64,000 bases of DNA from an uncultured Chlamydiae bacterium (GCA_963754655.1 CAVWGN010000001.1:1664001-1728000); one strand, 5' to 3'. Counted from the stretch's first letter, positions 24,359 to 64,000 are shown. Made by a program: numbers and translations. Notes: generated by a model not told the origin, from the sequence alone.

Positions 24359-27300
24359 TTAAAAGATTAAAATGTCGTAATGCCGTCCTTGTGCGGTTTG
24401 TTTGCGGTACAAGAAAATGGTCTTTTGCATTCCAGGATTTTCGATCTTTTGTAGTTGATAACTTTGTCCATTAAGACCTTCTCCATAAATAGCTAAGGTG
24501 TGGTTTTTTCTGATTTTATCTATCGAATGCTCAGCGGCACGCTCTGCAAGCAATTCCTGCTCATTCCATATCGATACCTTTTCTTCGCGATTGCTTTCTG
24601 AAAACACCCCTTTCCTAAGTTCTTCTCTCCACATAGGATTAGAAACTTGTAGGGCTATCGACCGCCATTGAGTATTGCCCTCAACAAGGAAAGCTCTTTT
24701 AATGACTTCTTCTATAGGTGTTCCATAAGCCATCGGTAAAATGCTTGCATCTGCTAGCTGAATCGTAGAGATATATTTGGACTTTGGTTTGCTCGTCTCT
24801 ACTGCTGTTAGAAGATCTTCTCTTTGGATGGTTCGGATCATTTTATTGATCTCGACTTTTATCAACTTTCGTTTATCCTTTGCTGCTTGTATATCTTTAC
24901 TCGCATTCAACTCCGATTGATAACATTGTTCCAAAATAAGATTACAGAAAAGGTGAAACTGTTGGACCACATTTACGTCCGTTCGCTGATTAAAAAAGGC
25001 ATCCATTGCTTTTTTAACTTCTCTGACAGTGCGAAGGTGTTCATCGCGAAATGTGTCGAATTTCATTGTGACAAATGTTCGAAGTGCCGCTTTATTGATC
25101 CTATTCGCCCTATCTTCAGCCTGTGCATCAACAAATGGATTCCAATTATCCGATATCCTAAAGATTTTAGATGCTTCAGGAAGATTTAATCCGACGCCTC
25201 CTGCTTTCTTCAATAAAATCAAAGCTTTGCTGATATTTGGTTGAGAAGGATTTTTAAACCATTTCAATACCTCAGTGCGCTGGTCAGTCTTAAGATCCCC
25301 GCTGAAAAGGCGTACTTCAACTTGAGGATGCCTAAATTGAATCGCTAAACGTAAGATTTCAGATTCTGCTTTGTACTCTGAAAAGAATAAACCATTTTCT
25401 CCGCCATTGACCATTTCTAAGAATACCGAAGAACTTAACAGTTTTGAAAAACGCGGAGATCTGGCAATCCATTTCTCTATCTCATTAGTGTCGCCTGAAG
25501 CAAAAAGGGTAAGGATATTCTGGATTTCAGGATCTTTTAAATTTAATGAAGATTGGTTAAGGGTTGGATCTAAAAGAATCCTATCGATAGTGTGAGAATA
25601 TGATAACTGATCGCCCTGGTTTTTATATGTGTTTAATGCTTTTGCTAATCTTTCTTTAACTAATGCTGAAATTTCTCCTTGAATTTCAATATCATTTCGT
25701 TTCGGCACAGCTCCTCCCCAATCTTGTATCACTCGAGTATCATCCCTTTTTAGTCTGTCGACCACAAAGGGAAGGATGGTGCTTCTGAAACTTTCTAAAT
25801 GAGCAAAAGATTTAATAATGAACTCAAAAATTTTGGTTTCATCTTTCTCTTCATCTGGATCTGCCAAAAATTTCACACACTTCTGAGTTTTTTCTATTTT
25901 TTCTGATAGTTCATTAAAATTGCTTTTAGAAAAAATAGATTCCGAAGGGTTTGCTAATCGCAGAAGGGTCCAAAGTTCAGAAAATCTATTTTCAAAGGGA
26001 GTTGCAGTCGATAATAGAATTTGTAGTTCTGGATTTTGTTCTTTAAGGTATTTGATGAGATTAAAGCTTGTTTTTGATAACATTGAATCAAAGGTATGCA
26101 TTCTCTGAGCCTCGTCGAAGCTTATCCCAGCTATTTGAATACCATTGAATAACTCTTTAGGGGTCTTTTTAAATACTTCATAGCTCGAAATAATGACCTT
26201 TTTTTCTGCCTCTATAGCTGCTGTAAATTCCTCCTTACTTTGGCACAACGCAATATTTCGTGACATATGATTTGTCAAAGGGACGAGGAAGGAATCTGGG
26301 ATTTTAGTATTTTTCAGTAAAAAGACTTCTTGCATCAATGCCCCTGCAAGACGTAGCTGCATGAAAAGAGGCATTGAAATCAATTTCCAATCCTTAAAAT
26401 CATTGCCTGGAAGAAGCTTTTCTAAAGGTGCTTCTGCAAAATATCTTTGCCACTCTTCTATGTCTTTATGATTTGAAAAAACTAACTCGCAAGCTTTTGT
26501 ATGCATTTGCCGTGTCAACTCTTCTGACAGACCTCCAAGTAATAGAGGAAGCTGTGCAGCCAGAATTTGTGATAATTCGCTCCAGATTTTATCTTTTGGA
26601 TTCGGCAGGACATCGTAAAGTGCTGCGGCCATCTGATGTTCATCAAACATGGCAAACAAAGGAAGATAGGCTAAAAGTTGATAAACATCCCTTTCCTCAA
26701 GAGCTTTTTTGATTTTCCTTAAGGCATTTGCCTGAAATTCTGGAAGCTGAGACTCCACTGTTTCTCTTTTCCAAAATACCCAAGCCATTGCTGAAACAAC
26801 AGCTTGATAAATAGAAACTTCCTTAAACATCTGGGGTCCAATCGATAGGGGGAGGATAACAAAAAATATCCCGCTTTTGCCGCGGCCGATCTGTTGCATT
26901 AACCATTCGTTAATGGCATAGCTTTTCCCGCTTCCCATTTGCCAAGAAAGGAGAGGAGAAATGCCTTGTTCCATTTTTTCCAACAATTTTGCCACACTTT
27001 CTGCTTGATAGGGTTTTAAAAGAGGATTTAGAGGGAAAAACTCCTGATGAGGAGGAACAACCGACATCAGGTCCAAAATAGGGTATTCCAATGGTTTTGT
27101 CGAAAAAAGGTTCTTTTTCCTTCTTAGATGATTCGAAATTTTTGAATTTACTCTTTCAAGTGAGTTAAGGCTGGTTTGGACCCAAAGGTTATTCCATCCA
27201 ATTGCTGCAAAAGAAACTGACAAACTGTCTTTGACTACTTTTGAGGTTTTAACGGCTTTTGCAATCTTTGGCGTGGAAATAATGATTTCTGGAATTGTTT

Positions 27301-29185
27301 TGAGTCGCTTGGAGATTCTTTGATCTTTAGGCTGACTAAGAGGGTCTCTTGTCCTTTTGATACCCGATTTTTTTTGTTTTGTCGGGTTGTTTTCTGAAAA
27401 ATAGGTTTGTAAAATCAGAAAAGGGGGAATTCTATCAGAGGAATTTTCCAATTCACTTTTTAAGACTTCTATACTTTCGAGAATTAAATTTTCTTGTAGT
27501 GTGCTAGGTTCCTCTTCTCTTATTTCCATTAAAGCTTGTTTGATGGTTGAGTCTTCCACAGCTTTTTCAAAGTCCATAGAAAGCCCTTCTAATAATCCAT
27601 TTTTTCCAAAATGAGCAGCCAAAAAATGGACCTTAGAGAAGTCACTTTTTTGAATAATAAAAAAGGAAGGGATTTGCTTTGGTGTTCCTGAATGATCCTT
27701 TTGAAACTTTGAAAGAGGCATATTGGCAAATTCCAACGATTTCAATTCCAACAGTATGGGAATTGCAAAGTCTAATAACTCATCCCCTAAAGGTATTGGA
27801 ATATTCGCAATGGGTTTGTTTAACCAGGTTTGATGTATGAGGTCAATGATTAATTCTTCATTCGGCTGACATTGATTCTTGAGAAAAGCTTCAGTAAGCT
27901 CTACAGGCATGTGATTCAAAAATTCTTGGATAATACTGAGGGCCAGCAACCTATTTGTAGAATGGTCTTCCAGAAATTTGGACAATGTATCGACGAGCCA
28001 GGGACATATCTTAGAGTTAAATCTCCAAGCTCCTCTTGAACTGGTAAGATGAGGGACGAGACTATCTTTATTAAGAAAAACTTTTTCGGATAATATCTTG
28101 AAAAGCTTTTCCGCATCTTGTCCTTGTTTAGGTTGTTTTTCAAGAAGAGTTTCTAAAGGCTCTACTTGTGTCTGAGTTGCTTGACTAGAGGATTCTTCCT
28201 GATTTAGGAATTGTACTGATAATGGGGACAGAGACTTTATGGCTTCTTCAAGTGAACAATTTTTAATAACAGAAGGGAAAGGACCCGATTCGCAATAAAA
28301 AATGCGTGGTCCCGAGGATTTATAAAGCTTTTGCTGAACTTTATTTTTCGAGATAATGTTATTTTCAAAGAAAAGATATTTTTTATCTTCTGGGTGAGAA
28401 TTGAGATAATTTAATAGGACTATCATGACGGCTTGATGGAGTCGGGAAGGGGTGTTAGATAGCCCACCTTTTTCATAAATTTGACAGGGTGATAGAGCGT
28501 CCGCTGTTCTATTGACATAAAAATGGAAGACAAATTCTTTATATAGAGTTCTATCTTTTATGATTTTATTCACAAAAGAGTGACATTTCTTAGATAAGAG
28601 ATTATTCAATAAGTGATTTAATATTGTCCTGAACCCAAAACTACTATAAAAAGTACTCCAAAGAGTCATTCCCTCCCAATCAAAATCCCCTAATGCCCAC
28701 TGAGTGTTTAACGACATGCCGGTTTTTTCTAACCTTTCATCCAACTCTGATAAGGTAGGAGGAGGAAAAACAACATGAAAAAAAATTTTATTATCTAAGA
28801 AAAGCTTTTCAAAATCTTCCCTTTTTTCAGGATGGTGTTGCAGATAACGTAAGAAAAAATGTGCCCCCATTCTGGCTTCTTTATCTAAATCAATTACAGA
28901 GTCAGATCCTTTTTTTTGAATTCCTGTTAACCGAAAATTCAGCGCTCCTATTGAATTTTCACCTTGAATGAAGTTTGGAATATCAGCCGATTTAGAGAGA
29001 TAATCGAGGATAAGCATTTTTGATTTTGATAAATCAATTTCCTTATTTTCCAACAAACCATTTAAAAGATCAAAAAATTGGGTCATGGATGTTTGGAAAT
29101 TAACAGAATGTTCCATTGATAGCTTAGAAATATTTTGAAAGCCTGAAATATTTCCACTAAACGAATTATAATATGAATTAATCAT
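24359..29185 (-). CDS. SNF2-family ATPase with long unique N-terminus and NLS-like basic patch
   Basis: LKPYQ, QMGSGKS, FDEAQRM, STATPFEN, AGGVGLNL, WNP...QAEDRANRI; KKSGIKRTR...SKRLK. Confidence 0.88.
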   Translation of the reverse strand: MINSYYNSFSGNISGFQNISKLSMEHSVNFQTSMTQFFDLLNGLLENKEIDLSKSKMLILDYLSKSADIPNFIQGENSIGALNFRLTGIQKKGSDSVIDLDKEARMGAHFFLRYLQHHPEKREDFEKLFLDNKIFFHVVFPPPTLSELDERLEKTGMSLNTQWALGDFDWEGMTLWSTFYSSFGFRTILNHLLNNLLSKKCHSFVNKIIKDRTLYKEFVFHFYVNRTADALSPCQIYEKGGLSNTPSRLHQAVMIVLLNYLNSHPEDKKYLFFENNIISKNKVQQKLYKSSGPRIFYCESGPFPSVIKNCSLEEAIKSLSPLSVQFLNQEESSSQATQTQVEPLETLLEKQPKQGQDAEKLFKILSEKVFLNKDSLVPHLTSSRGAWRFNSKICPWLVDTLSKFLEDHSTNRLLALSIIQEFLNHMPVELTEAFLKNQCQPNEELIIDLIHQTWLNKPIANIPIPLGDELLDFAIPILLELKSLEFANMPLSKFQKDHSGTPKQIPSFFIIQKSDFSKVHFLAAHFGKNGLLEGLSMDFEKAVEDSTIKQALMEIREEEPSTLQENLILESIEVLKSELENSSDRIPPFLILQTYFSENNPTKQKKSGIKRTRDPLSQPKDQRISKRLKTIPEIIISTPKIAKAVKTSKVVKDSLSVSFAAIGWNNLWVQTSLNSLERVNSKISNHLRRKKNLFSTKPLEYPILDLMSVVPPHQEFFPLNPLLKPYQAESVAKLLEKMEQGISPLLSWQMGSGKSYAINEWLMQQIGRGKSGIFFVILPLSIGPQMFKEVSIYQAVVSAMAWVFWKRETVESQLPEFQANALRKIKKALEERDVYQLLAYLPLFAMFDEHQMAAALYDVLPNPKDKIWSELSQILAAQLPLLLGGLSEELTRQMHTKACELVFSNHKDIEEWQRYFAEAPLEKLLPGNDFKDWKLISMPLFMQLRLAGALMQEVFLLKNTKIPDSFLVPLTNHMSRNIALCQSKEEFTAAIEAEKKVIISSYEVFKKTPKELFNGIQIAGISFDEAQRMHTFDSMLSKTSFNLIKYLKEQNPELQILLSTATPFENRFSELWTLLRLANPSESIFSKSNFNELSEKIEKTQKCVKFLADPDEEKDETKIFEFIIKSFAHLESFRSTILPFVVDRLKRDDTRVIQDWGGAVPKRNDIEIQGEISALVKERLAKALNTYKNQGDQLSYSHTIDRILLDPTLNQSSLNLKDPEIQNILTLFASGDTNEIEKWIARSPRFSKLLSSSVFLEMVNGGENGLFFSEYKAESEILRLAIQFRHPQVEVRLFSGDLKTDQRTEVLKWFKNPSQPNISKALILLKKAGGVGLNLPEASKIFRISDNWNPFVDAQAEDRANRINKAALRTFVTMKFDTFRDEHLRTVREVKKAMDAFFNQRTDVNVVQQFHLFCNLILEQCYQSELNASKDIQAAKDKRKLIKVEINKMIRTIQREDLLTAVETSKPKSKYISTIQLADASILPMAYGTPIEEVIKRAFLVEGNTQWRSIALQVSNPMWREELRKGVFSESNREEKVSIWNEQELLAERAAEHSIDKIRKNHTLAIYGEGLNGQSYQLQKIENPGMQKTIFLYRKQTAQGRHYDILIF

Positions 29186-37150: not shown

Positions 37151-38359
37151 CTATAACTTATGGACAAATATACCATTCATTACTTCTTGCTTCATCGATA
37201 CATTGCTAATAGACTTTTGGCCTATCCCACAAGAGGAATCTCCACAAGCGTAAATTCCCGTGGAACTCACGGTACTCAATTTTAATAAATTTTTGGCTGC
37301 ATTAATGTCTCTATCGTGTTGTGTACTGCAACGTTGACAGACCCATTCCCTGATGTTCAGCGGCATTTGGATGGCTTTATGCTGACAATGAGAACAGATT
37401 TTTGAAGAAGAATAATACCTTGGCGCTCTTATTAGCTTCGAGCCATACCATTCTGTCTTATAGGCAAGCATGCGTATAAATCCGCTCCATCCTGCATCGG
37501 CGATCCCTCTACTCAACCTATTCTTTTGCTGCAAAGTTTGTACATCCAAATCTTCAACAACAATAATTGACTTGGTTTTCGCCAATATTGTTGATAATTT
37601 ATGATGGAAATCAGTGCGTTGATTGCCGATTTTTCGATGCTGTCTGGCTAACAAAAGAGATGATTTCTTATAATTACTAGAACCTTTTTGTTTGCGACTT
37701 TGTTTTTTATTTAACACTCTTATCTTTTTAAGCGATTTATTTAAAGGCTTTGGTGAAATAGTTTTTTCACCTTCTGAAGTTGTAACAAAAGAGGTTAGCC
37801 CGACATCAATGCCAATCGCTGGTCCTTCAACTGGCTGGGAATTTTCTATTTCACACTCTACCGTTACACTAACATACCACCGATCTGCTTGACGAGAAAC
37901 TGTAGCTGAAAGAATTCTTCCTCGTACTTCTGCACACTCTTTAAGTCGAATGATACCCAAACGAGGTAATTGAATGGATTGCTTATTAACTTTAATGGTT
38001 CCCGTTAATCGGAAATGATCGTTGATCCCCTTTCTCTTAAATTTTGGGAATCCTCCTTTCTTACCACTCTTCTGGCGATGGAAAAAATTCTGAAAAGCTC
38101 GATCAAGATCTCTCAAAGCCTCTTGGGGCGCACATTTTGACACCTCATACATCCAAGAAAATTGTGACCCCTTCAAACTATTGAGTAATCGGTGCTGTTC
38201 AATAGCGTTAGTAGATATTCCATCTTTTTCATATTTTTCAATTCTTGCAGCAAGCCCCCAGTTATAAGCAAACCGAGCAGATCCTGCATGCTTGGCTAAG
38301 AGGATGCGCTGAGCGATATTCGGCTTTAATTCATATCGGTAAGCTCTTTTAATTAGCAT
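37151..38359 (-). CDS. tnpB: RNA-guided endonuclease TnpB
   Basis: AYRYELKP, GIDVG (RuvC-I), VEDL (RuvC-II), CSHC...CQRC zinc finger, DRDINAA (RuvC-III). Confidence 0.93.
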   Translation of the reverse strand: MLIKRAYRYELKPNIAQRILLAKHAGSARFAYNWGLAARIEKYEKDGISTNAIEQHRLLNSLKGSQFSWMYEVSKCAPQEALRDLDRAFQNFFHRQKSGKKGGFPKFKRKGINDHFRLTGTIKVNKQSIQLPRLGIIRLKECAEVRGRILSATVSRQADRWYVSVTVECEIENSQPVEGPAIGIDVGLTSFVTTSEGEKTISPKPLNKSLKKIRVLNKKQSRKQKGSSNYKKSSLLLARQHRKIGNQRTDFHHKLSTILAKTKSIIVVEDLDVQTLQQKNRLSRGIADAGWSGFIRMLAYKTEWYGSKLIRAPRYYSSSKICSHCQHKAIQMPLNIREWVCQRCSTQHDRDINAAKNLLKLSTVSSTGIYACGDSSCGIGQKSISNVSMKQEVMNGIFVHKL

Positions 38360-38915
38360 TTTGCATGGTTTCCAATGCTTTTTTAGCTTTGTTCTTTGCC
38401 GATCTTCGTCCGTATAGTCTAGCACAAAAAGAAGTTAACACTTCTATCATATCTTGAACTAAATCATCCTTTAACTCAGAACCATCTGCAACTATTAATT
38501 TTCTTCCTTGTGCAGCTAATGCTGACTCCACATATTCAGCACCAAATCTCATCAATCGATCTCGATGTTCGACTAAAATAATCCAGATCTTTGGATTGTT
38601 CAATAATTTTATTAATTTAGGACGATGGCCATTGAGGCCAGAGCCTATTTCTGTTACTGTGTGAGCCACAAGATAGCCTTTTTGATTGGCAAAAGTGACT
38701 AGCCGGCTTACTTGCCCGTTAAGATCATTTTTTTGATCGGCTGAGGACACACGTGCATAGATAGCAACAGCATTTGGCTCAAGCATTTCCTCTTTGATTA
38801 GAATTGTTCCTGTTTTTGTTTGCTCGGCAGGAACAGGGAGTTGTCCTGCTTTGAACCAGCGCCAAGCAGTCCTATAGCTTATGCCTTGTTTTTTTGCCCA
38901 TTTACTTAGTTTCAT
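38349..38915 (-). CDS. tnpA: IS607 serine recombinase TnpA
   Basis: N-terminal HTH, YARVSS, EHRDRLMRFG, SFCARLYGRRS. Confidence 0.93.
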   Translation of the reverse strand: MKLSKWAKKQGISYRTAWRWFKAGQLPVPAEQTKTGTILIKEEMLEPNAVAIYARVSSADQKNDLNGQVSRLVTFANQKGYLVAHTVTEIGSGLNGHRPKLIKLLNNPKIWIILVEHRDRLMRFGAEYVESALAAQGRKLIVADGSELKDDLVQDMIEVLTSFCARLYGRRSAKNKAKKALETMQNAN

Positions 38916-48633: not shown

Positions 48634-49407
48634 TTATAAAAGTCTTTTCATAATCTGTTCAAAATTAAGCATGCGTAGTCTGCCTGAAGGGTCTTGAGCT
48701 TCAAGTTTTGACCATTCGTTTGGTGAAGCATTGTCAAGCCAAGTCTGTAAATTTTTCTGAAAAGCTTTTAACCATTTTGGATGTTGTTTTGCTAGCACGC
48801 TAAATTCATTCAAGGCACGATCAGAAAAGTCGCCTAACTGAGAAACGACATACCAAATGCCATAAAGATCTTTAAATATTTTTAAGGAGCTTTTACGTTT
48901 CGTAAAAGTAAGGCCTTTATGGAACATCCAAGCGCCAGGAGTCACCACATTCCCTTTAACGTTTGAGTAAGTCTGAAACTTTAATGTTGTTTGCAAGCTC
49001 AAAGTTAAGTAGCTCAATGGTTGTGCAACCACACCTGCAATAAGTACATTTTTATTTTTATTATTTCTTACAGAGTCGTCTGTCAGGAATTCAATTTCAA
49101 TCTCGGCGCCTGCAATGTCCTTCACATAGGCCTCTGTCGCAGGACGATCTAAATCTTTAGAAACATGGTTGAAACCTGCTTCTCGAAGGTGACTTTGAAT
49201 GTTCTTTTTCGATATTTCTGGAATTTTTCTTGGAATAAGAGAATCAATATCCCTCGTTCCCACTGGCGCATTCATTAATTTTGGGTCTGCGAGATAAAGC
49301 TTGTAGATAAATAGGGCAAACCCGCCTCCAATGACAACCAATTCTCGCCATGGACCAATAGATTCTAAAAACTCTGAAATGATTTTATCTTCTTGATTGA
49401 ATGTCAT
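48634..49407 (-). CDS. Nucleotidyltransferase, type IV TA toxin-like (AbiEii/GSU2403-like)
   Basis: VVIGGG.A, TRDID, IEFLT, K...KDLY motifs; coupled to the upstream gene. Confidence 0.75.
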   Translation of the reverse strand: MTFNQEDKIISEFLESIGPWRELVVIGGGFALFIYKLYLADPKLMNAPVGTRDIDSLIPRKIPEISKKNIQSHLREAGFNHVSKDLDRPATEAYVKDIAGAEIEIEFLTDDSVRNNKNKNVLIAGVVAQPLSYLTLSLQTTLKFQTYSNVKGNVVTPGAWMFHKGLTFTKRKSSLKIFKDLYGIWYVVSQLGDFSDRALNEFSVLAKQHPKWLKAFQKNLQTWLDNASPNEWSKLEAQDPSGRLRMLNFEQIMKRLL

Positions 49408-50135
49408 CTCATTTTTCCGCTTTTATAAATGCGCTTAAGCTCTAAAAGACGCTCTGCCATAAATTCAGCTTGCTCTTGTCCACGTAAAGGAAAGTGATAT
49501 AGATCCAGAAAAGTCAAGATAGGAGGAGATGAATTAATATCTTGACTTGAGTCGGAAGAATTCTTCAGCAAGCTTTTGTAGTAGGGTTCTACAAGCAAAA
49601 CTTCATAGCCTCTTTCTTGAGGCTCTAGTAACAACTTTTTCTCAAGCTGTGGTCGAACCAAAGGATCAAGCAGGTATAATTCAAGAGTGTTTAAATTTGT
49701 GTTTTTGCATCCATAGACTTCAGCAGCGGAATGAAGAGCAAGTGCAACTTTCTTATTTAGATTTGACTTTTTGAGTGCTTCTAAAAGTTCTGCTTTATCT
49801 TGGAGTCCAGAGCGATATGTTCTCATTTTACATTTTTTAACAATACTATAATATTCCAACCAGCTTTCAAGAAGAAGTTTAGGATTCTTCAGAAAAAACT
49901 TTTTAGCAGTTCTAACTCCTTCAATTTGCAATATCCCTTTTAAAACTAAAATCTTAAAGACGCGCTGTACCAACCCAAGACTTACCCCTGTCTCCTTGGC
50001 TACATTTCTTAAGGAAAATTTTTGGCTTTTTATCCCCTCTTTTAGAAGCCAATCGAGGATGAGCACGGATTTGTCAGAATAGATATTCCCTTCTGCGGGC
50101 TTCTCATTCGAACCTATTAGAAACTGACCTTTCAT
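49404..50135 (-). CDS. AbiEi-like antitoxin/transcriptional regulator
   Basis: N-terminal HTH (SLRNVAKETGVSLGLVQR), LLESW, LDL...P.RG.EQAE. Confidence 0.72.
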   Translation of the reverse strand: MKGQFLIGSNEKPAEGNIYSDKSVLILDWLLKEGIKSQKFSLRNVAKETGVSLGLVQRVFKILVLKGILQIEGVRTAKKFFLKNPKLLLESWLEYYSIVKKCKMRTYRSGLQDKAELLEALKKSNLNKKVALALHSAAEVYGCKNTNLNTLELYLLDPLVRPQLEKKLLLEPQERGYEVLLVEPYYKSLLKNSSDSSQDINSSPPILTFLDLYHFPLRGQEQAEFMAERLLELKRIYKSGKMR

Positions 50136-54024: not shown

Positions 54025-54866
54025 GGGCGTGTTTTAAAAAGATTATTTATGATATAATAATAGTTGTAGGGACCCATAGGAGGTGTTTATGACTAGAATG
54101 TTTTTAAAAGATAAGGACTGGGAGAAGCTAAGTCCATTATTACCTTCGCAAACAGGTAAACAGGGAAGACCTAGAAAAAATGATCGGTTGGTAATAGAAG
54201 GGATTTTATGGTCTATAAGAACGGGAGCTCCTTGGAGAGATATGCCCCCTGAATTTGGCCACTGGCAAACGATCTATTCAAGAATGCATAACTGGACCTT
54301 AAATGGAACTTGGTCAAAAATTTGGAGTGTTTTGAAAAAAAAATGCATCCCACGAATCACATATTATTGATTCTACAAGTGTTAAAGTACATCAAAATGC
54401 AATGGGAGGTTTTGGAGGAAAAACATTTAATGGAATTGGAAAGACACAAGGTGGTTGGTCAACAAGAATTCATGTTGTAGTTAATGCTGAAGGGCAACCA
54501 TTAAAAGTAAAAATTGCTCCTGGAAATAGAAATGATAATTTATTTGCTAAATCTCTATTAAATGGGAAACGAGCAAAAAATGTTATAGCAGATCTAGCTT
54601 ATGATACAGATGAAATTAGATACTATTTAATGAAAAGAAAGGAACGAGCTGTCATTCCAAGTCACCCAAAGAGAACTGATGAAATTCCCTATAGCAAGCG
54701 TTTGTATAAAAAAAGAAAGGTTGTGGAGAATTTTTTCCAAAAACTAAAAACTTTTAGACGAATTGCTACTCGTTACGATAAGTTAGGAAAAATATTTAGA
54801 GGAGTGGTTATAATTGCGTTTATTATAATTTATATCACACATTGGTAATGTTTTTCAAACACGCCC
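54025..54866 (+). mobile_element. IS5-family element (ORFs 54083-54370 and 54402-54848, joined via an A9 run)
   Basis: TIR GGGCGTGTTT.AAAA; inserted in CCTGG with TG/CTGG duplication; IDSTSV, ADLAYD and VENFF..LK.FRRIATRYDK motifs. Confidence 0.92.
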
Positions 54867-55765: not shown

Positions 55766-56881
55766 ATGCAAATTAATAACAGTCACACACAAACAACGCA
55801 AAATAATTTGAAAGAATCCTTATTAAATACACTTATTCCTAATGAGATATTAGAAATTGTTTTTGATCAGATTGTCAATCAAAAGAGCCAGCCTTTGTCT
55901 GATATTTCTTCTATTTTACTCACGTGTAAAAGATGGGAAAATGTTCTTAAGGCAAATCCTTGCATCTCATTATTGCAGACTCTTTTTCAAATTACACACA
56001 GTGATCGATTCATTATTACGCCTCCCAGTGAGTGCATTATCATATTTAACAAAAAAAAGGAATTTACCTCTCAAGAACTTAAATTGATTGATCAAGCCAC
56101 TAAAGACAAAGCCTTATTTGAAAAATTATTCTTATCAGAATCAAAAAAATTTGAAAAATTGTTAATGGTTGATTCAAAATTATTTCACCCAGACAGTTTA
56201 TTTCTTCCTCTTTTGAATCGCTATTTATGGAATCCTGAGGTTTGCAAAAACAGCGCCAATCAACGCATCAGGATTATCGCTGAAAATCAACTGTCTATTC
56301 TAAACTCTCTTATATCAGGTACTGATGAAGAAAAATTAACTGTTATCAAAAACGACTTTATCGAAAAATTTTACCGGGGCGTTAAAGTTAGTGAAACAAG
56401 AAAGTACGAGGCTGAAACATCTGTTATCTCCACCCTTAAAAAATTTCGCAATCTTAATGATAAAAAAGTTTTTATTCAAGTTGCTCACTATTTTGGAGGC
56501 GCTATTTTTGTTATAGATGAAAGTTTTAAAAAAGATCGAGAGATTGTCTTAGCGGCCGTTAAGCAAGATGGCAGCGCTCTTTACAAGGCAGATGAAAGTT
56601 TTAAAAAAGATCGAAAGATTGTCTTAGCGGCCGTTAAGCGAGATGGCAGCGCTCTTTACATTGCAGATGAAAGCCTCAAAAAAGATCGAGAGATTGTCTT
56701 GGCGGCTGTTAAGCAAGATGGCGAGGCTCTTCAGTATGCAGATGAAAGTCTTAGAAAAGATCGAGAGATTGTCTTAGCAGCAGTTAAACAAAATGCCTGG
56801 TCTTTTCGATTTGCTTTAGATAAAAGCCTTAAAAAAGATCAAGAGATTATGTTGGCTATCCAGTATTGCCTAAGTTTTTAG
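55766..56881 (+). CDS. F-box-like + DUF4116 repeat protein (array member 1)
   Basis: LIPNEILEIVF...LTCKRW; 25-aa repeats. Confidence 0.85.
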   Translation: MQINNSHTQTTQNNLKESLLNTLIPNEILEIVFDQIVNQKSQPLSDISSILLTCKRWENVLKANPCISLLQTLFQITHSDRFIITPPSECIIIFNKKKEFTSQELKLIDQATKDKALFEKLFLSESKKFEKLLMVDSKLFHPDSLFLPLLNRYLWNPEVCKNSANQRIRIIAENQLSILNSLISGTDEEKLTVIKNDFIEKFYRGVKVSETRKYEAETSVISTLKKFRNLNDKKVFIQVAHYFGGAIFVIDESFKKDREIVLAAVKQDGSALYKADESFKKDRKIVLAAVKRDGSALYIADESLKKDREIVLAAVKQDGEALQYADESLRKDREIVLAAVKQNAWSFRFALDKSLKKDQEIMLAIQYCLSF

Positions 56882-57139
56882 GTATTTTTCGATCTCAAAA
56901 CATTCGTCATTAAAAACCAAATCTGAATATGACTGCGGAGGCGATCGAGTTGGATTATTTTATGTGAAATGACAAACTTAAATTAAAATCTTGTTAATAT
57001 ATAAACATCTTGTTTTTAGTTTTTAGCAAAATTAAATATAAAATCATATAAATATACACATAAATAAATTATATGGTACATTATTAAATTCATTATAAAT
57101 TACTTATAAATAAAAAAAATAAATCATTAAAAGGTAATT

Positions 57140-58297
57140 ATGCAAATTAGTAACATTTACTCACAAACAACGCAAAATTATTTGGAAGAATCCTTATTAA
57201 ATACCCTTATTCCTAATGAGATATTAGAAATTGTTTTTGATCAGGTTGTTAATCAAAAAAGCCAGCCTTTATCTGATATTTCTTCTATTTTACTCACGTG
57301 TAAAAGATGGGAAAATGTTCTTAAGGCAAATTCTTGCATCTCATTATTGCAGACTCTTTTTCAAATTACACACAGTGATCGATTCACTATTACGCCTCCC
57401 AGTGAGTGCATTATCATACCTGACAAAAAAAAGGAATTTACCTCTCAAGAACTTAAATTGATTGATCAAGCCAATAAAGAAGAAAAAACATTTGAAGAAT
57501 TATTAATGGTTGATTCAGAATTATTTCACCCCAAAAGTATATTTCTTCCTCTTTTGAATCGCTATTTATGGGATCCTGAAGTTTGCAAAAACAGCGCCAA
57601 TCAACATATTAGGATGATTGCTGAAAATCAATTGTCTATTTTAAACTCTCTTATCTCAGGCACTGATGAAGAGAGATTAACCGTTATCAAAAATGACTTT
57701 ATCGAAAAATTTTACCAGGGCGGTAAAGTTAAGGAAAGACAGTACGAGGCACAAACATCTGTTATCTCCACCCTTAAAAAATTTTTCGATCTTAATGATA
57801 AAAAAGTTTTTATTCAAGTTGCTCACTATTTTGGATGCGCTATTTTTGTTATAGATGAAAGTTTTAAAAAAGATCGAGAGATTGTCTTAGCGGCCGTTAA
57901 GCAAGATGGCTATAACGCTCTTTACAAGGCAGATGAAAGTTTTAAAAAAGATCGAAAGATTGTCTTAGCGGCCGTTAAGCGAGATGGCAGCGCTCTTTAC
58001 ATTGCAGATGAAAGCCTCAAAAAAGATCGAGAGATTGTCTTAGCGGCCGTTAAGAAAGATGGCTATGCTCTTAAATATGCAGATGAAAGCCTTAGAAAAG
58101 ATCGAGAGATTGTCTTGGCGGCCGTTAAGCAATATGGCGAGGCTCTTCAGTATGCAGATGAAAGTCTTAGAAAAGATCGAGAAATTGTCTTAGCAGCAGT
58201 TAAACAAAATGCCTGGTCTTTTCGATTTGTTTTAGATAAAAGCCTTAAAAAAGATCAAGAGATTATGTTGGCTATCCGGGATTGCCTAAGTTTTTAG
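57140..58297 (+). CDS. F-box-like + DUF4116 repeat protein (array member 2)
   Basis: Same architecture as member 1. Confidence 0.85.
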   Translation: MQISNIYSQTTQNYLEESLLNTLIPNEILEIVFDQVVNQKSQPLSDISSILLTCKRWENVLKANSCISLLQTLFQITHSDRFTITPPSECIIIPDKKKEFTSQELKLIDQANKEEKTFEELLMVDSELFHPKSIFLPLLNRYLWDPEVCKNSANQHIRMIAENQLSILNSLISGTDEERLTVIKNDFIEKFYQGGKVKERQYEAQTSVISTLKKFFDLNDKKVFIQVAHYFGCAIFVIDESFKKDREIVLAAVKQDGYNALYKADESFKKDRKIVLAAVKRDGSALYIADESLKKDREIVLAAVKKDGYALKYADESLRKDREIVLAAVKQYGEALQYADESLRKDREIVLAAVKQNAWSFRFVLDKSLKKDQEIMLAIRDCLSF

Positions 58298-58466
58298 GTA
58301 TTTTTCGATCTCAAAACATTCGTCATTAAAAACCAATTTTTTGTTTTTTTAATTTTCAACAAAATTAAATATATAAACATATACATAAATAAAATTATTT
58401 GATATAACATTAAAACAACAGAAATTATTGATAAATATTAAAAAAACAAATTATTAAAAGGAAACT

Positions 58467-59702
58467 ATGCAAATTAATAACATTCCTTCACAAACAACGC
58501 CAAATCATTTGGAAGAATCCTTATTAAATACCCTTATTCCTAATGAGATATTAGAAATTGTTTTTGATCAGGTTGTTAATCAAAAAAGCCAGCCTTTATC
58601 TGATATTTCTTCTATTTTACTCACGTGTAAAAGATGGGAAAATGTTCTTAAGGCAAATTCTTGCATCTCATTATTGCAGACTCTTTTTCAAATTACACAC
58701 AGTGATCGATTCACTATTACGCCTCCCAGTGAGTGCATTATCATACCTGACAAAAAAAAGGAATTTACCTCTCAAGAACTTAAATTGATTGATCAAGCCA
58801 ATAAAGAAGAAAAAACATTTGAAGAATTATTAATGGTTGATTCAGAATTATTTCACCCCAAAAGTATATTTCTTCCTCTTTTGAATCGCTATTTATGGGA
58901 TCCTGAAGTTTGCAAAAACAGCGCCAATCAACATATTAGGATGATTGCTGAAAATCAATTGTCTATTTTAAACTCTCTTATCTCAGGCACTGATGAAGAG
59001 AGATTAACCGTTATCAAAAATGACTTTATCGAAAAATTTTACCAGGGCGGTAAAGTTAAGGAAAGACAGTACGAGGCACAAACATCTGTTATCTCCACCC
59101 TTAAAAAATTTCGCGATCTTAATGATAAAAAAGTTTTTATTCAAGTTGCTCACTATTTTGGATCCTGTGTTTTTGATATAGATGAAAGTTTTAAAAAAGA
59201 TCGAGAGATTGTCTTAGCGGCCGTTAAGCAAGATGGCTATAACGCTCTTTACAAGGCAGATGAAAGTTTTAAAAAAGATCGAAAGATTGTCTTAGCGGCC
59301 GTTAAGCAAGATGGCTATAACGCTCTTTACAAGGCAGATGAAAGTTTTAAAAAAGATCGAAAGATTGTCTTAGCGGCCGTTAAGCGAGATGGCAGCGCTC
59401 TTTACATTGCAGATGAAAGCCTCAAAAAAGATCGAGAGATTGTCTTAGCGGCCGTTAAGAAAGATGGCTATGCTCTTAAATATGCAGATAAAAGCCTTAG
59501 AAAAGATCGAGAGATTGTCTTGGCGGCCGTTAAGCAATATGGCGAGGCTCTTCAGTATGCAGATGAAAGTCTTAGAAAAGATCGAGAAATTGTCTTAGCA
59601 GCAGTTAAACAAAATGCCTGGTCTTTTCGATTTGTTTTAGATAAAAGCCTTAAAAAAGATCAAGAGATTATGTTGGCTGTCCGGGATTGCCTAAGTTTTT
59701 AG
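58467..59702 (+). CDS. F-box-like + DUF4116 repeat protein (array member 3)
   Basis: Nearly identical to member 2, plus one extra 26-aa repeat. Confidence 0.85.
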   Translation: MQINNIPSQTTPNHLEESLLNTLIPNEILEIVFDQVVNQKSQPLSDISSILLTCKRWENVLKANSCISLLQTLFQITHSDRFTITPPSECIIIPDKKKEFTSQELKLIDQANKEEKTFEELLMVDSELFHPKSIFLPLLNRYLWDPEVCKNSANQHIRMIAENQLSILNSLISGTDEERLTVIKNDFIEKFYQGGKVKERQYEAQTSVISTLKKFRDLNDKKVFIQVAHYFGSCVFDIDESFKKDREIVLAAVKQDGYNALYKADESFKKDRKIVLAAVKQDGYNALYKADESFKKDRKIVLAAVKRDGSALYIADESLKKDREIVLAAVKKDGYALKYADKSLRKDREIVLAAVKQYGEALQYADESLRKDREIVLAAVKQNAWSFRFVLDKSLKKDQEIMLAVRDCLSF

Positions 59703-59932
59703 GTATTTTTCGATCTCAAAATATTCGTCATTAAAAACCAAATCTGAATATAACTGCGGAAGTGATCGAGTTGGATTACCTTAAGTGAAATTAAAAGCTT
59801 AAATTAAAATCTCTTTAATTTATACGCCTTCTTGTTTTTTGGTTTTTAAAAAATTAAACATAAAATTATATAAAAATATACGAAAATAAAATTATTTTGT
59901 AAAATATTAAAAAAAATCATTAAAAGGTAATT

Positions 59933-61306
59933 ATGCAAAGTAACAACATTCATTCACAAACAACGCCAAATCATTTGGAAGAATCCTTATTAAATACACT
60001 TATTCCTAATGAGATATTAGAAATCGTTTTTGATCAGATTGTCAATCAAAAGAGCCAGCCTTTATCTGATATTTCTTCTATTTTACTCACGTGTAAAAGA
60101 TGGAAAAATGTTCTTAAGGCAAATCCTTGTATCTCATTATTGCAAACTCTTTTTCAAATTACACACAGTGATCGATTCACTACTACGCCTCCCAGTGAAT
60201 GCATTATCATACCTGACAAAAAAAAGAAATTTACCTCTCAAGAACTTAAATTGATTGATCAAGCCAATAAAGAAAAAAATACATTTGAAAAATTGTTATT
60301 GGTTGATTCAGAATTATTTCACTCCGACAGTTTATTTCTTTCTCTTTTGAATCGCTATTTATGGGATCCTGAAGTTTGCAAAAACAGCGCCAATCAACGC
60401 ATCAGGATGATTGCTGAAAATCAATTGTCTATTTTAAACTCTCTTATCTCAGGCACTGATGAAGAAAAATTAGCCGTTATCAAAAATGACTTTATCGAGA
60501 AATTTTACCTGGGAGGCGAAGTTAATCAAAGACAGCACGAGGCACAAACATCTGTCATCTCCACTCTTAAAAAATTTCGCAATCTTAATGATAAAAGCGT
60601 TTTTATTCAAATTGCTCACTATTTTGGATCCTGTGTTTTTGATATAGATGAAAGCCTTCAAAAAGATCGAGAAGTTGTCTTAGCGGCCGTTCAGCGAACT
60701 GGCCCGGCTCTTGCCTATGCAGATAAAAGCCTTAGAAAAGATCGAGAGATTGTCTTGGCGGCCGTTAAGCAAGATGGCCATGCTCTTTTCTATGCAGAGG
60801 AAAGCCTTAGAAAAGATCGAGAGATTGTCTTGGCGGCTGTTCAGCGAGATGGCTATGCTCTTGCCTATGCAAATAAAAGCCTTCAAAAAGATCGAGAAGT
60901 TGTCTTGGCGGCCGTTAAACAATACGGCTGCGTTATTGAATATGCAGATGAAAGCCTTCAAAAAGATCGAGACATTGTCTTGGCGGCCGTTAAGCGAAAT
61001 GGCAGTGCTCTTCAATATGCAGATGAAAGCCTTAGAAAAGATCGAGACATTGTCTTGGCGGCCGTTCAGCAAGATGGTAGGGCTCTTCAATATGCAGATG
61101 AAAGCCTTAGAAAAGATCAAGACATTGTCTTGGCGGCCGTTAAGCAAGATGGCGAGGCTCTTCAATATGCAGATGAAAGCCTTAGAAAAGATCGAAAAAT
61201 TGTCTTAGCGGCAGTTAAGCAAAATGGCTGGTCTTTTCAATTTGCAGATAAAAGCCTTAAAAAAGATCAAGAGATGATGTTGGTTTTCCAGGATAGGATT
61301 GCCTAG
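59933..61306 (+). CDS. F-box-like + DUF4116 repeat protein (array member 4)
   Basis: Same architecture; about 8 repeats. Confidence 0.85.
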   Translation: MQSNNIHSQTTPNHLEESLLNTLIPNEILEIVFDQIVNQKSQPLSDISSILLTCKRWKNVLKANPCISLLQTLFQITHSDRFTTTPPSECIIIPDKKKKFTSQELKLIDQANKEKNTFEKLLLVDSELFHSDSLFLSLLNRYLWDPEVCKNSANQRIRMIAENQLSILNSLISGTDEEKLAVIKNDFIEKFYLGGEVNQRQHEAQTSVISTLKKFRNLNDKSVFIQIAHYFGSCVFDIDESLQKDREVVLAAVQRTGPALAYADKSLRKDREIVLAAVKQDGHALFYAEESLRKDREIVLAAVQRDGYALAYANKSLQKDREVVLAAVKQYGCVIEYADESLQKDRDIVLAAVKRNGSALQYADESLRKDRDIVLAAVQQDGRALQYADESLRKDQDIVLAAVKQDGEALQYADESLRKDRKIVLAAVKQNGWSFQFADKSLKKDQEMMLVFQDRIA

Positions 61307-61362
61307 GTTTTTAGGTGTTTTTCGATCTCAAAACATTCGTTATTAAAAACCAAATCAGCATA

Positions 61363-61860
61363 TCAGTTTGAATCATAGATAGGTTTTTCAATTAGAGGCT
61401 TATCGAAGAGCTCTATCTCTTCAGGTGTTGGTGCTTGGAATATTTTGAACCACATGTGTAGTACATCTCGTTTTATAGGAGGGTCCTCCATGCCACGGTG
61501 TTGAATTCTATTGAAGAGGACATCCAAAGGCACAGAGAGATAATGCAATTCAACAGCGGCACCAAGAGCTCGAGCTTCGAGCCGTAAAGTATCTCGTTCA
61601 GATCTTCCCCATGTTCCCCACTCGATGATTATGATAAGACCGAGCGTAAGAAGCTCCTGACCAAATTTCCACTGTAACGCTTCCACTCTTCCACGCTTTT
61701 CTTCGTCGTAAAGGTTTATCGAAAGAGCATCCATCCATTCATCGGGAGCAAAACGAATTGCGTGCAGTTTTTTTTCGAGCAACTTGGCGAATGTAGTTTT
61801 ACCTGAACCTGGCAAACCGCATATAATAATCAACCTTGGGCCAGTGCTAGATCTTTTCAT
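61363..61860 (-). CDS. AAA_33-type P-loop kinase
   Basis: IICGLPGSGKTT, DEW, R...R lid motif. Confidence 0.85.
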   Translation of the reverse strand: MKRSSTGPRLIIICGLPGSGKTTFAKLLEKKLHAIRFAPDEWMDALSINLYDEEKRGRVEALQWKFGQELLTLGLIIIIEWGTWGRSERDTLRLEARALGAAVELHYLSVPLDVLFNRIQHRGMEDPPIKRDVLHMWFKIFQAPTPEEIELFDKPLIEKPIYDSN

Positions 61861-61957
61861 AAAGGATCATCATTTTGGTAAATTTATGATTTAGGCCAAC
61901 ATCTTCATATGAATAATCAAATCCCTACGTCATAGGGATCTTAAGTTCTAAAGCTTG

Positions 61958-62209
61958 TTATTGAACCAGCCTGAATCTAGGTTGTAATTTTTCATCTGCG
62001 ATGACATTTTCTAAAAACATAGCAAGTGGGCGTACCCATATTCCTTCCTCTCCATATAAAGCTTGGTAGACCACAAGTTCTTCAAGTGTTTCGCTATGAC
62101 GAGCTATAGCAAGAACCTTATAACGGAAGCCTTTATAGTGCTCATACAGACCATTAATGATTACGGTTTTTGCCAAGAGTGATAACGGGGGTAAAGCTTT
62201 TGAATTCAT
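61958..62209 (-). CDS. DUF1653 family protein
   Basis: GLYEHYKG..Y.V...ARHSETLEELVVYQALYG...WVRP..MF. Confidence 0.88.
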   Translation of the reverse strand: MNSKALPPLSLLAKTVIINGLYEHYKGFRYKVLAIARHSETLEELVVYQALYGEEGIWVRPLAMFLENVIADEKLQPRFRLVQ

Positions 62210-62545
62210 CTATCTCCATGAAGATTCTTGTAAAAGGATTTGCGGACTATTTATCTTCGTTTAATCTTAACAAAAACAGCAATATGGCTTCTAGGATAAA
62301 TATGTTTGTAAAATATTATTAATAAACCTAACAAGTGCTTTTGATGTCTGATAATATTAAAAAAAGAACATCCCCTTCATGTCTGATAATAAAATCAAAT
62401 GCTTTTCAAAAAAATTTTCTTTACGATTATAAGCCTCGATTTAGATCGCGTTAATTTATAACAATCACTTTTGTTAGTTTTAAAAAAATTTAAAAAGTTA
62501 AGTATAAAAATTAAATATATGTATACATAAACAAAAGTTAATTAA

Positions 62546-62724
62546 AGACAGCACGAGGCACAAACATCTGTCATCTCCCCCTTAAAAAATTTCGCAATCT
62601 TCGTGATAAAAAAGTTTTTATTCAAGTTACTCAGTATTTTGGATCCTCTGTTTTTGATATAGATTAAAGCCTTAAAAAAGATCAAGAGATTATCTTAGCT
62701 GTCCAGGATTGTCTAAGTTTTTAG
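62546..62724 (+). pseudogene. Collapsed F-box/DUF4116 gene remnant with no repeats
   Basis: The pre-repeat segment is joined directly to the terminal KKDQEI...DCLSF segment and the conserved 3' tail. Confidence 0.8.
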
Positions 62725-62864
62725 ATATTTTCGATCTCAAAACATTCGTCATTAAAAACCAATTTTTTGTTTTTTTAATTTTCAACAAAATTAAATATAT
62801 AAATATTTACATAAATAAAATCATTTGATACAATATTAAAAAAACAAATTATTAAAAGGAAACT

Positions 62865-64000
62865 ATGCAAATTAATAACATTCCTTCACAAACAACGCCA
62901 AATCATTTGGAAGAATCCTTATTAAATACCCTTATTCCTAATGAGATATTAGAAATTGTTTTTGATCAGATTGTCAATCAAAAGAGCAAACCTTTATCTG
63001 ATATTTCTTCTATTTTACTCACGTGTAAAAGATGGGAAAATGTTCTTAAGGCAAATCCTTGCATCTCATTAGTGCAGACTCTTTTTCAAATTATACACAG
63101 GCGTCGATTCCTTATTACGCCTCCCAAGGAGTATATCCTAACTGACCAAAAGAAGGAATTTACCTCTCAAGAACTTAAATTGATTGATCAAGCCAATAAA
63201 GAAGAAAAAACATTTGAAGAATTATTAATGGTTGATTCAGAATTATTTCACCCCAAAAGTATATTTCTTCCTCTTTTGAATCGCTATTTATGGGATCCTG
63301 AGGTTTGCAAAAAGAGCGCTAATAAACACATTAGGATGATTGCTGAAAATCAATTGTCTATTTTAAACTCTCTTATCTCAGGCACTGATGAAGAGAGATT
63401 AACCGTTATCAAAAATGACTTTATCGAAAAATTTTACCAAGGCGGTAAAGTTAAGGAAAGACAGCAGGAGGTACAAACATGTGTCATTTCTGCTCTTAAT
63501 AAATTTCGCCATCTTGATGATAAAAAAGTTTTTATTCAAGTTGCTCACTATTTTGGGCGCGCTATTTTTGATATAGATGAAAGCTTTAACAAAGATCGCG
63601 AAATTGTTTTGTCTCTCGTTCAGAAAGATGGCAGAGCTCTTAAATATGCAGATGAAAGCCTTAGAAAAGATCGAGACATTGTCTTGGCGGCCGTTAAGGA
63701 AAATGGCAATGCTCTTTTATACGCAGATAAAAGTCTTACAAAAGATCGGGAAGTTGTCCTGGCGGCCGTTCAGCGAACTGGCTATGCTCTTTCCTATACA
63801 GATAAAAGCCTTAGAAAAGATCGAGAAGTTGTCTTGGCGGCCGTTAAACAATATGGCTGCGTTATTGAATATGCAGATGAAAGCCTTAGAAAAGATCGAG
63901 ATATTGCCTTGGCGGCCGTTCAGCAAGATGGCAATGCTCTTCAATATGTAGATAAAAGCCTTAGAAAAGATCGAGACATTGTCTTGGCGGCCGTTAAGAA
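62865..64000 (+). CDS. F-box-like + DUF4116 repeat protein (member 5; runs off the window end)
   Basis: ATG at 62865, MQINNIPSQTTPNHLEESLLNTLIPNEIL...; absent from the ORF track, consistent with no stop before the window end. Confidence 0.85.
   Translation, partial: MQINNIPSQTTPNHLEESLLNTLIPNEILEIVFDQIVNQKSKPLSDISSILLTCKRWENVLKANPCISLVQTLFQIIHRRRFLITPPKEYILTDQKKEFTSQELKLIDQANKEEKTFEELLMVDSELFHPKSIFLPLLNRYLWDPEVCKKSANKHIRMIAENQLSILNSLISGTDEERLTVIKNDFIEKFYQGGKVKERQQEVQTCVISALNKFRHLDDKKVFIQVAHYFGRAIFDIDESFNKDREIVLSLVQKDGRALKYADESLRKDRDIVLAAVKENGNALLYADKSLTKDREVVLAAVQRTGYALSYTDKSLRKDREVVLAAVKQYGCVIEYADESLRKDRDIALAAVQQDGNALQYVDKSLRKDRDIVLAAVK

Follow-up and report, generated by a model that had tools for sequence, protein, structure and literature searches.

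Why does one stretch of a chlamydial genome hold several close copies of the same gene, side by side, and what would the proteins be for? The stretch in question is 64,000 nucleotides (nt) from an uncultured Chlamydiae bacterium (CAVWGN010000001.1:1664001-1728000 in assembly GCA_963754655.1). We call this whole stretch the window, and we count coordinates from its first letter. At positions 55766-64000, the window contains five tandem genes on the same (+) strand, which we call M1 to M5, plus one 3' remnant. Each of the five genes joins an N-terminal head that resembles an F-box to tandem DUF4116 repeats. We think that these genes probably encode exported, F-box-like substrate receptors for SCF (Skp1-cullin-F-box) ubiquitin ligases, with a DUF4116 solenoid that would bind the target, and that the repertoire diversifies by recombination. 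A reading of this kind was put forward earlier from the DNA alone (the initial annotation), and it is partly supported by our analysis.

All five open reading frames (ORFs) are intact. M1 (55766-56881; 371 amino acids) has the F-box-like head, a helical module, four full DUF4116 units, and a terminal partial unit. It has an 11-amino-acid insert in the helical module or linker and one 75-nt unit fewer than M2. M2 (57140-58297; 385 amino acids), M3 (58467-59702; 411 amino acids), and M4 (59933-61306; 457 amino acids; this is the protein that we used for modelling) have five, six, and eight full units, each followed by a terminal partial unit. M5 (62865-64097; 410 amino acids) has six full units and a divergent C-terminal end, and its last 97 nt lie outside the window. 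DUF4116 (PF13475) was found in tandem, above the cut-off, in all five proteins (4-9 stretches per protein, E = 1e-59 to 1e-156). Tandem Repeats Finder reports a period of 75 nt, with 3.7 copies in M1 (56515-56795), 4.7 in M2 (57853-58211), 5.7 in M3 (59180-59616), 8.4 in M4 (60646-61272), and 5.7 in M5 (63575-63998). The proteins share one plan: a tip that is predicted to be disordered (amino acids 1-21), the F-box-like segment (22-77), a helical module that is specific to the family and extends to about amino acid 235, and then the DUF4116 units. Amino acids 22-66 of the F-box-like segment are encoded at 55829-55963 in M1, 57203-57337 in M2, 58530-58664 in M3, 59996-60130 in M4, and 62928-63062 in M5. 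The opening 300 nt are 90-100% alike across the five genes, so the shared N-terminus that the initial annotation described is present in all of them; it was also ascribed to the remnant, but the remnant has lost its head.

Is the head an F-box? We believe that it is likely to be homologous to F-boxes, and that this can be seen by comparing profiles. When we aligned 25 heads from the family with nine independent F-box segments (Pfam-supported, from the source genome and one relative), hhalign reported a probability of 91% (E = 1.1e-6) over residues 22-66. Three paralogs exceed the Pfam F-box cut-off (26.1, 25.7, and 24.4 bits), and at E ≤ 1, 22 of the 25 heads match PF12937 (F-box-like; best E = 1.3e-5) and 14 match PF00646. 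Searching with the 25-head profile against 1.84 billion representative proteins gave 14 matches at E ≤ 1e-3: 11 from the source genome, two that are family-like, and one, P0055, that is the sole match from outside the family (E = 7e-4, profile positions 21-62). P0055 contains three F-box-like domains (103.6 bits), and hhalign also matches it to the family heads (60%, E = 8.7e-5). These results uphold the F-box-like head of the initial annotation as homology at the level of profiles. Also, the invariant or nearly invariant residues of the family (P25, L29, F33, L51, L52, C54, and W57) coincide with the F-box hallmark (LPxEIL...IF...LxCKxW). Finally, amino acids 22-77 are the most constrained part of the protein. 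For this segment, the ratio of non-synonymous to synonymous substitution rates (dN/dS) is 0.19 when the five genes are compared and 0.40 across the family; the tip has 0.96 and the linker 0.78. Over the head and the helical module it is 0.19-0.39. The head is under purifying selection.

Several results weigh against an F-box. M1-M5 themselves score just 13.0-14.0 bits against PF12937 (amino acids 24-60), below the cut-off of 24.3 bits, so in the search with F-box hidden Markov models that the initial annotation suggested, the five array genes stay under the cut-off and three paralogs exceed it. AlphaFold gives the F-box-like segment a low predicted local distance difference test score (pLDDT of 45-57) in both models; at this confidence, helices are modelled at 26-37, 45/48-53, and 55-62/63. 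As compared to the aligned F-boxes, there is an insert of 5-6 residues between the first two helices. The 25-head profile had nine matches at E ≤ 10 among the sequences in PDB (best E = 1.1), and none of these is an F-box protein. With the head model, the lowest E from Foldseek was 0.45; there was nothing at E ≤ 1e-3 and no F-box protein among the rows. A three-helix F-box fold is thus a prediction that is unproven by the models. Two other comparisons say little either way. A wide VIA-align search with the head model (best Z = 6.1) found generic helical repeats and no F-box protein, but its rows cover residues 143-245 only, so it is uninformative about the F-box part. In Protein Atlas, all scores were 0.81-0.84, which is under 0.9, and the nearest clusters are giant-virus proteins (22-32% with an F-box); we consider this to be a lead only.

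If the head has stopped working as an F-box, or never did, then these proteins could be exported effectors or scaffolds whose head serves for export, for binding a chaperone, or for some other contact with the host, and whose solenoid sequesters its targets but does not lead to their ubiquitination. This would account for the low scores of M1-M5, the low-confidence model, the insert between helices 1 and 2, and the lack of a solved F-box protein among the profile's matches. It would also fit with DUF4116 being joined to kinases and other non-ligase domains in other proteins. But it would leave the match to independent F-boxes unexplained, as well as the reciprocal match to P0055 and its three F-box-like domains. 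In addition, the hallmark residues do not vary, and the strongest constraint falls exactly on the F-box-like segment. We consider this explanation to be unlikely, but it is the one that we would take most seriously after an SCF substrate receptor.

The repeats are easier to interpret. In the AlphaFold2 model of full-length M4, pLDDT is 93-98 over amino acids 240-457, and each 25-residue unit is modelled as three short helices (of about 5, 10, and 6 residues). An alpha-solenoid was also predicted for DUF4116 in the part of an earlier study that we draw on (PMC8078820), which matches our model of M4. Foldseek with the full M4 model found no solved structure at E ≤ 1e-3. The rows that rank highest, for designed armadillo proteins and for importin-alpha, are not significant (E = 0.012-0.1, TM score 0.12-0.26). 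Variation between the units is concentrated at a few positions. In the 29 units of the five genes, entropy peaks at position 21 (2.9 bits) and position 24 (3.0 bits); in 669 units from across the family, the peaks are at positions 21, 24, and 19 (3.8, 3.0, and 2.8 bits). The initial annotation had proposed a solenoid with variation focused on a few repeat positions, and both aspects agree with the confident model and the entropy. Positions 21 and 24 are in the third helix and are three residues apart, so they probably face the same side. A short unit of 25 residues with three variable positions and a confident model could be a convenient system for studying how a repeat code determines specificity.

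The other proteins in which DUF4116 occurs fit with a role in binding targets, because it is repeatedly paired with E3 ligase modules. When we searched with the repeats of M4, 2,929 proteins matched at E ≤ 1e-10 among 7,999 scored candidates, and the names of the sources include Naegleria gruberi, a Sylvanvirus, dinoflagellates, Parachlamydiaceae and Chlamydiota bins, and Legionella moravica. One of these proteins (P0073) has a canonical F-box (43.1 bits) and 16 DUF4116 stretches. Another, from a Chlamydiota bacterium bin (P0153), has a HECT domain (29.7 bits, cut-off 23.9) and DUF4116; it connects DUF4116 to E3 ligases in chlamydiae a second time, and independently. A protein from Naegleria (P0091) combines a kinase with DUF4116. 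Among related genomes, 17 of 40 contain DUF4116, with 1-127 matches each, and the 14 DUF4116 proteins that we examined from related genomes have varied N-termini. L031, whose genome belongs to the same order, has an F-box over the PF00646 cut-off together with DUF4116. L028 (G009:C168) is a 1,436-amino-acid ORF with TPR, a DUF294/SidM_N-like nucleotidyltransferase, and C-terminal DUF4116. We also note that two proteins from another genome (L029 and L030 from G011) have N-termini that look F-box-like by eye (LxxEIxxxL...LLLTxKAWxN...LW) and do not match a Pfam F-box model. These are possibly another divergent F-box-like head. In the literature matches listed, DUF4116 (PF13475, IPR025197) was not tied to chlamydiae; supplements were outside this search, and they may list the family.

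The initial annotation missed the scale of the family, which occupies about 27 loci, this array among them. In the 3.16-Mb genome, 96 ORFs match the first 240 amino acids of M3. They occur in arrays of up to 18 genes, total 143 kb (4.5% of the genome), and have 0-14 repeat cores each, as compared to 4-8 DUF4116 units in the array genes. One of them is elsewhere in the window (4998-6977, + strand); it has 659 amino acids and 12 DUF4116 stretches, and its head is 59% identical to that of M4. In a quick tree of 89 paralog heads, the five window genes form one clade (support of 99.6), so this array expanded locally, as a recent branch within the family of about 96 genes. The 240-amino-acid head is found at 91 places in the source genome and in none of 30 related genomes (three from the same genus, 15 from the same family, and 12 from the same order). 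Similarly, when we searched for the head among 5.8 billion clustered proteins, 44 of the 45 matches were on the source genome's own contig. Outside of the source genome, we found three family-like proteins (P0024, P0053, and P0054). So the head module appears, from these searches, to have a very narrow distribution. Overall, this is a tandem and lineage-specific expansion that includes a pseudogene, which is the remnant in the array.

Could such a family have grown mainly by non-adaptive birth, death, and drift in a small and isolated population, with most of the copies redundant or decaying and with variable positions that are merely free to change? The array does contain a remnant, and 6 of the 96 family ORFs are under 300 amino acids. 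For the repeats as a whole, the ratio of non-synonymous to synonymous differences (pN/pS) is 0.77, which would fit relaxed constraint equally well. Non-synonymous change is highest at positions 21, 24, and 19 (pN = 0.63, 0.42, and 0.38). The ratio at the variable positions is about 1-2.3 (about 1 at positions 21 and 24), but the per-position values (from 32,286 pairs of units) are noisy, with pS varying 30-fold between positions, and they are unreliable. So they do not demonstrate an excess of non-synonymous change, and we do not claim positive selection at positions 19, 21, or 24. These values also count against the explanation that we favour. Drift was argued for comparable families by Domman et al., in the part of their study that we draw on (PMC4209131). 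On the other hand, all five frames are open, the head and the helical module have low dN/dS, and the head is kept in 88 of the 93 ORFs in the genome that have at least three repeat cores. Also, drift concerns the cause of the family's growth and would be compatible with the mechanism that we propose. As a full explanation of these genes, we find it improbable.

We treat this bacterium as a chlamydia-like obligate intracellular organism. Its genome encodes four TLC nucleotide transporters, a match to Hc1 (78 bits, but the Hc1 model also matched a Bacteroides control), and a single FHIPEP protein (the type III export gate). Searches for Chlam_OMP6 and HrpJ found no matches in this genome or in the controls, so these are uninformative. 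The FHIPEP gene (G000:C1:2040856-2045227) is about 5.5 kb from another five-gene array of the F-box-like/DUF4116 family, and its neighbour encodes a separate protein with the genome's best F-box-like score (42.3 bits). Alternatively, M1-M5 might stay in or on the bacterium, as variable proteins of the surface or associated with the inclusion, and never contact the host's ubiquitin machinery. Some DUF4116 proteins of relatives would fit this, as they have hydrophobic N-termini and match no Pfam family besides DUF4116. But when we read the translations of the five genes by eye, we saw no hydrophobic segment or signal peptide. And no role is known for F-box homology inside bacteria. Furthermore, comparable chlamydial families carry working type III signals, according to the part of the study of those families cited here (PMC4209131). 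We find a retained protein quite implausible.

The copies in the array have exchanged segments. The coding sequences of M2 and M3 differ by one indel of 78 nt (26 amino acids) and by 15 mismatches. M3 has two tandem 78-nt units (26 amino acids, with GYNAL; 59178-59333, + strand) where M2 has one, and it is ambiguous exactly where in this pair the indel lies. The mismatches fall into two clusters, one at nt 11-40 and the other at the repeat junction (57785-57849); the 605 nt that separate the clusters are identical. So, as the initial annotation had it, M2 and M3 are nearly identical except for one repeat, and we add the clustered mismatches. The C-terminal repeats were also said to be common to M1-M3, and indeed M1 is 96-98% identical to M2 and M3 over the 3' repeats; further 5' the identity is about 90-93%.

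To analyze the pattern across all five copies, we used an alignment of 1,010 columns that covers the sequence upstream of the genes as well as their 5' part outside the repeats, and that has 65 informative sites. The partitions at these sites form blocks along the alignment, and all five copies are involved. M3 groups with M5 at columns 59-300 (pattern 00101), with sites that group M2 with M4 interleaved; M2 groups with M3 at columns 368-455; M2, M3, and M5 group together at columns 605-890; M4 groups with M5 at columns 902-931; and M3 groups with M4 at columns 996-1001 (pattern 00110), which is the GSCVFDIDES junction. Judged from these blocks, M3 is a mosaic with a 5' end like that of M5, a middle that is identical to M2, and a junction like that of M4. 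The resemblance of M3 to M5 at its 5' end (including the upstream region) and to M4 at GSCVFDIDES had been noticed before, and both are confirmed. In the four-gamete test, 42% of all pairs of sites fail. Just 12 of the 64 pairs of neighbouring sites are incompatible, as compared to 27.0 ± 3.2 if the order of the sites is permuted, and none of 5,000 permutations gave so low a value. A windowed statistic of the PHI (pairwise homoplasy index) type gave the same result (0 of 5,000 permutations as low). Incompatible sites that lie in blocks imply the exchange of segments, so exchange between the copies in the array is well supported, and the recombination that the initial annotation had asked to be checked is present. 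Some windows in the repeats of M4 and M5 have their best hits in distant arrays (up to 92.6% identity), but because all of the units share a consensus, we make no claim that distant arrays exchange segments ectopically.

Identical stretches of up to 605 nt might have led to collapsed or chimeric repeats during assembly, but we think that an artefact is very improbable, as the assembly has two contigs and no N, each copy has its own flanks and its private differences, and the block pattern spans all five copies and extends to the non-repetitive 5' region.

The sequences between the genes also record duplication and loss. A 35-nt tail follows M1 (56886-56920), M2 (58302-58336), M3 (59707-59741), M4 (61319-61353), and the remnant (62728-62762), all on the + strand. 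Allowing for up to four substitutions, these are the only five matches in the genome. The initial annotation had reported this tail for five genes and the remnant, which is correct except for M5, where just the first 19 nt or so are left. The remnant (62437-62772, + strand) is a pseudogene made of joined pieces: an upstream-like piece, about 165 nt from the end of the N-terminal module (where the frame changes), an in-frame TAA, and the start of a first repeat that is fused directly to a terminal partial repeat, followed by the tail. Because of this structure, it has neither the F-box-like head nor any full repeat. A stretch of 119 nt between M2 and M3 (58302-58420) is 95% identical to one downstream of the remnant and upstream of M5 (62728-62846), which fits a trace of the duplication or conversion of a two-gene block, as far as we can tell from this likeness. 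In four of the five tails, we also noticed a hairpin of 7 bp that spans the stop codon and precedes a U run (56867-56890 for M1, and similarly for M2, M3, and the remnant). This could be a weak terminator. Folding the RNA of the five tails gave z scores of -0.15 to -1.25, which are not significant, and a scan for promoters and terminators found no excess over shuffled sequences (20 versus 30.6 ± 6.2 and 8 versus 5.6 ± 2.6).

We propose the following mechanism for F-box-like SCF receptors of this kind. The proteins would be exported into the host cell, which is probably an amoeba. There, the head would dock on the host's Skp1, so that the protein becomes a substitute substrate receptor of an SCF ubiquitin ligase, and the DUF4116 solenoid would select the target via variable residues that form a stripe (at positions 19, 21, and 24 in every unit). 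The target would presumably then be ubiquitinated. The repertoire would diversify by tandem duplication of genes, by the gain or loss of whole units, and by exchange of segments between copies. We infer export, docking on Skp1, target binding, and ubiquitination. If the solenoid does bind the target, the widespread DUF4116 would have a role that can be tested: holding the target in adaptors of E3 ligases.

A broader idea, which we consider doubtful, is that DUF4116 is a general and reprogrammable solenoid for recognizing targets, and that the 96-gene repertoire is a diversity-generating system. Amoebae, giant viruses, and intracellular bacteria would each attach DUF4116 to ubiquitin ligases (F-box or HECT) and to kinases, and the three-position code (19, 21, and 24) would be shuffled by gain or loss of units and by both intra-array and ectopic exchange. 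If so, the bacterium could keep pace with changes in the targets in its host.

The array is interrupted, between M4 and the remnant, by two unrelated genes on the - strand: an AAA_33 P-loop kinase-like gene (61363-61860) and a DUF1653 gene (61958-62209). Immediately upstream of the array there is an IS4/IS5-type transposase that is split between frames (DUF4096 and then DDE_Tnp_1; 54083-54848, + strand), which may mark the edge of the array or may have aided rearrangement. Long ORFs run through the DUF4116 arrays in other frames or on the opposite strand (60680-61165, - strand; 60711-61208 and 63577-63951, + strand); these seem to be a consequence of the sequence's periodicity and not genes. 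Elsewhere in the window, an IS605-type OrfB/TnpB (with a Cas12f1-like TNB domain) overlaps a serine resolvase gene (37151-38915, - strand). An NTP_transf_8 nucleotidyltransferase and an AbiEi_2 antitoxin-like regulator (48634-50135, - strand) resemble a pair of the type IV toxin-antitoxin or abortive-infection kind. There is also a SNF2-type helicase of 1,608 amino acids (24359-29185, - strand); a pattern-based scan across 185,579 species genomes, from which records of this genome itself were possibly excluded, found no confirmed relative of it.

How do these genes compare to known systems? Like the eukaryotic substrate receptors of SCF (FBXL and FBXW), they join a head, which is homologous to F-boxes at the profile level, to a helical linker and then to a repeat domain, to which the substrate would bind. 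Unlike those receptors, they are bacterial, their binding to Skp1 is putative, and their repeat is an orphan 25-residue unit of three helices. For this solenoid, the best Foldseek rows are the designed armadillo proteins, and these are not significant (E = 0.012, TM score 0.14-0.19). P0073, P0153, and L031 likewise combine a ubiquitin-ligase module with DUF4116, but they have a canonical F-box or a HECT domain instead of the head of the array family, and they belong to no known family of about 100 genes. Legionella has F-box effectors of the AnkB/LegU1 type, which carry ankyrin repeats, are encoded by one or a few genes, and are delivered by type IV secretion; they are injected into amoebae or macrophages, where they hijack SCF. 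By description only, our genes are similar to these in that a bacterial F-box (or, in our genes, an F-box-like head) is joined to a repeat domain.

The closest comparison is to the large families of the Parachlamydiaceae, which we know from part of a published study (PMC4209131). As described there, NEX1 (F-box or RING with LRR) and NEX2 (F-box with TPR), along with PEX1 (BTB with LRR) and PEX2 (TPR with CHAT), are families with 27-138 members that occur in tandem arrays, include pseudogenes, are under purifying selection, and have type III signals. Our family is like NEX1a, NEX2, and the F-box superfamily of the Parachlamydiaceae in several ways: a genome has dozens to over 100 paralogs, which lie in tandem arrays, the copy number is specific to the lineage, remnants of pseudogenes occur, selection is purifying, and a chlamydia-like intracellular bacterium carries the genes (PMC4209131, in the same part). 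Among the DUF4116 proteins of related genomes, L028 resembles the NEX2 architecture except for its C-terminal DUF4116. The array family differs in that its repeat is DUF4116 instead of LRR or TPR and in that its head was found in none of the 30 related genomes. It also differs in its recombination: the part of the earlier study cited here reports no convincing role for recombination in the NEX and PEX families (PMC4209131), whereas exchange between paralogs is clear in this array. We suggest that these genes represent a fifth very large family in the ubiquitin-related effector expansions of amoeba-associated chlamydiae, and that this one is built on an orphan repeat.

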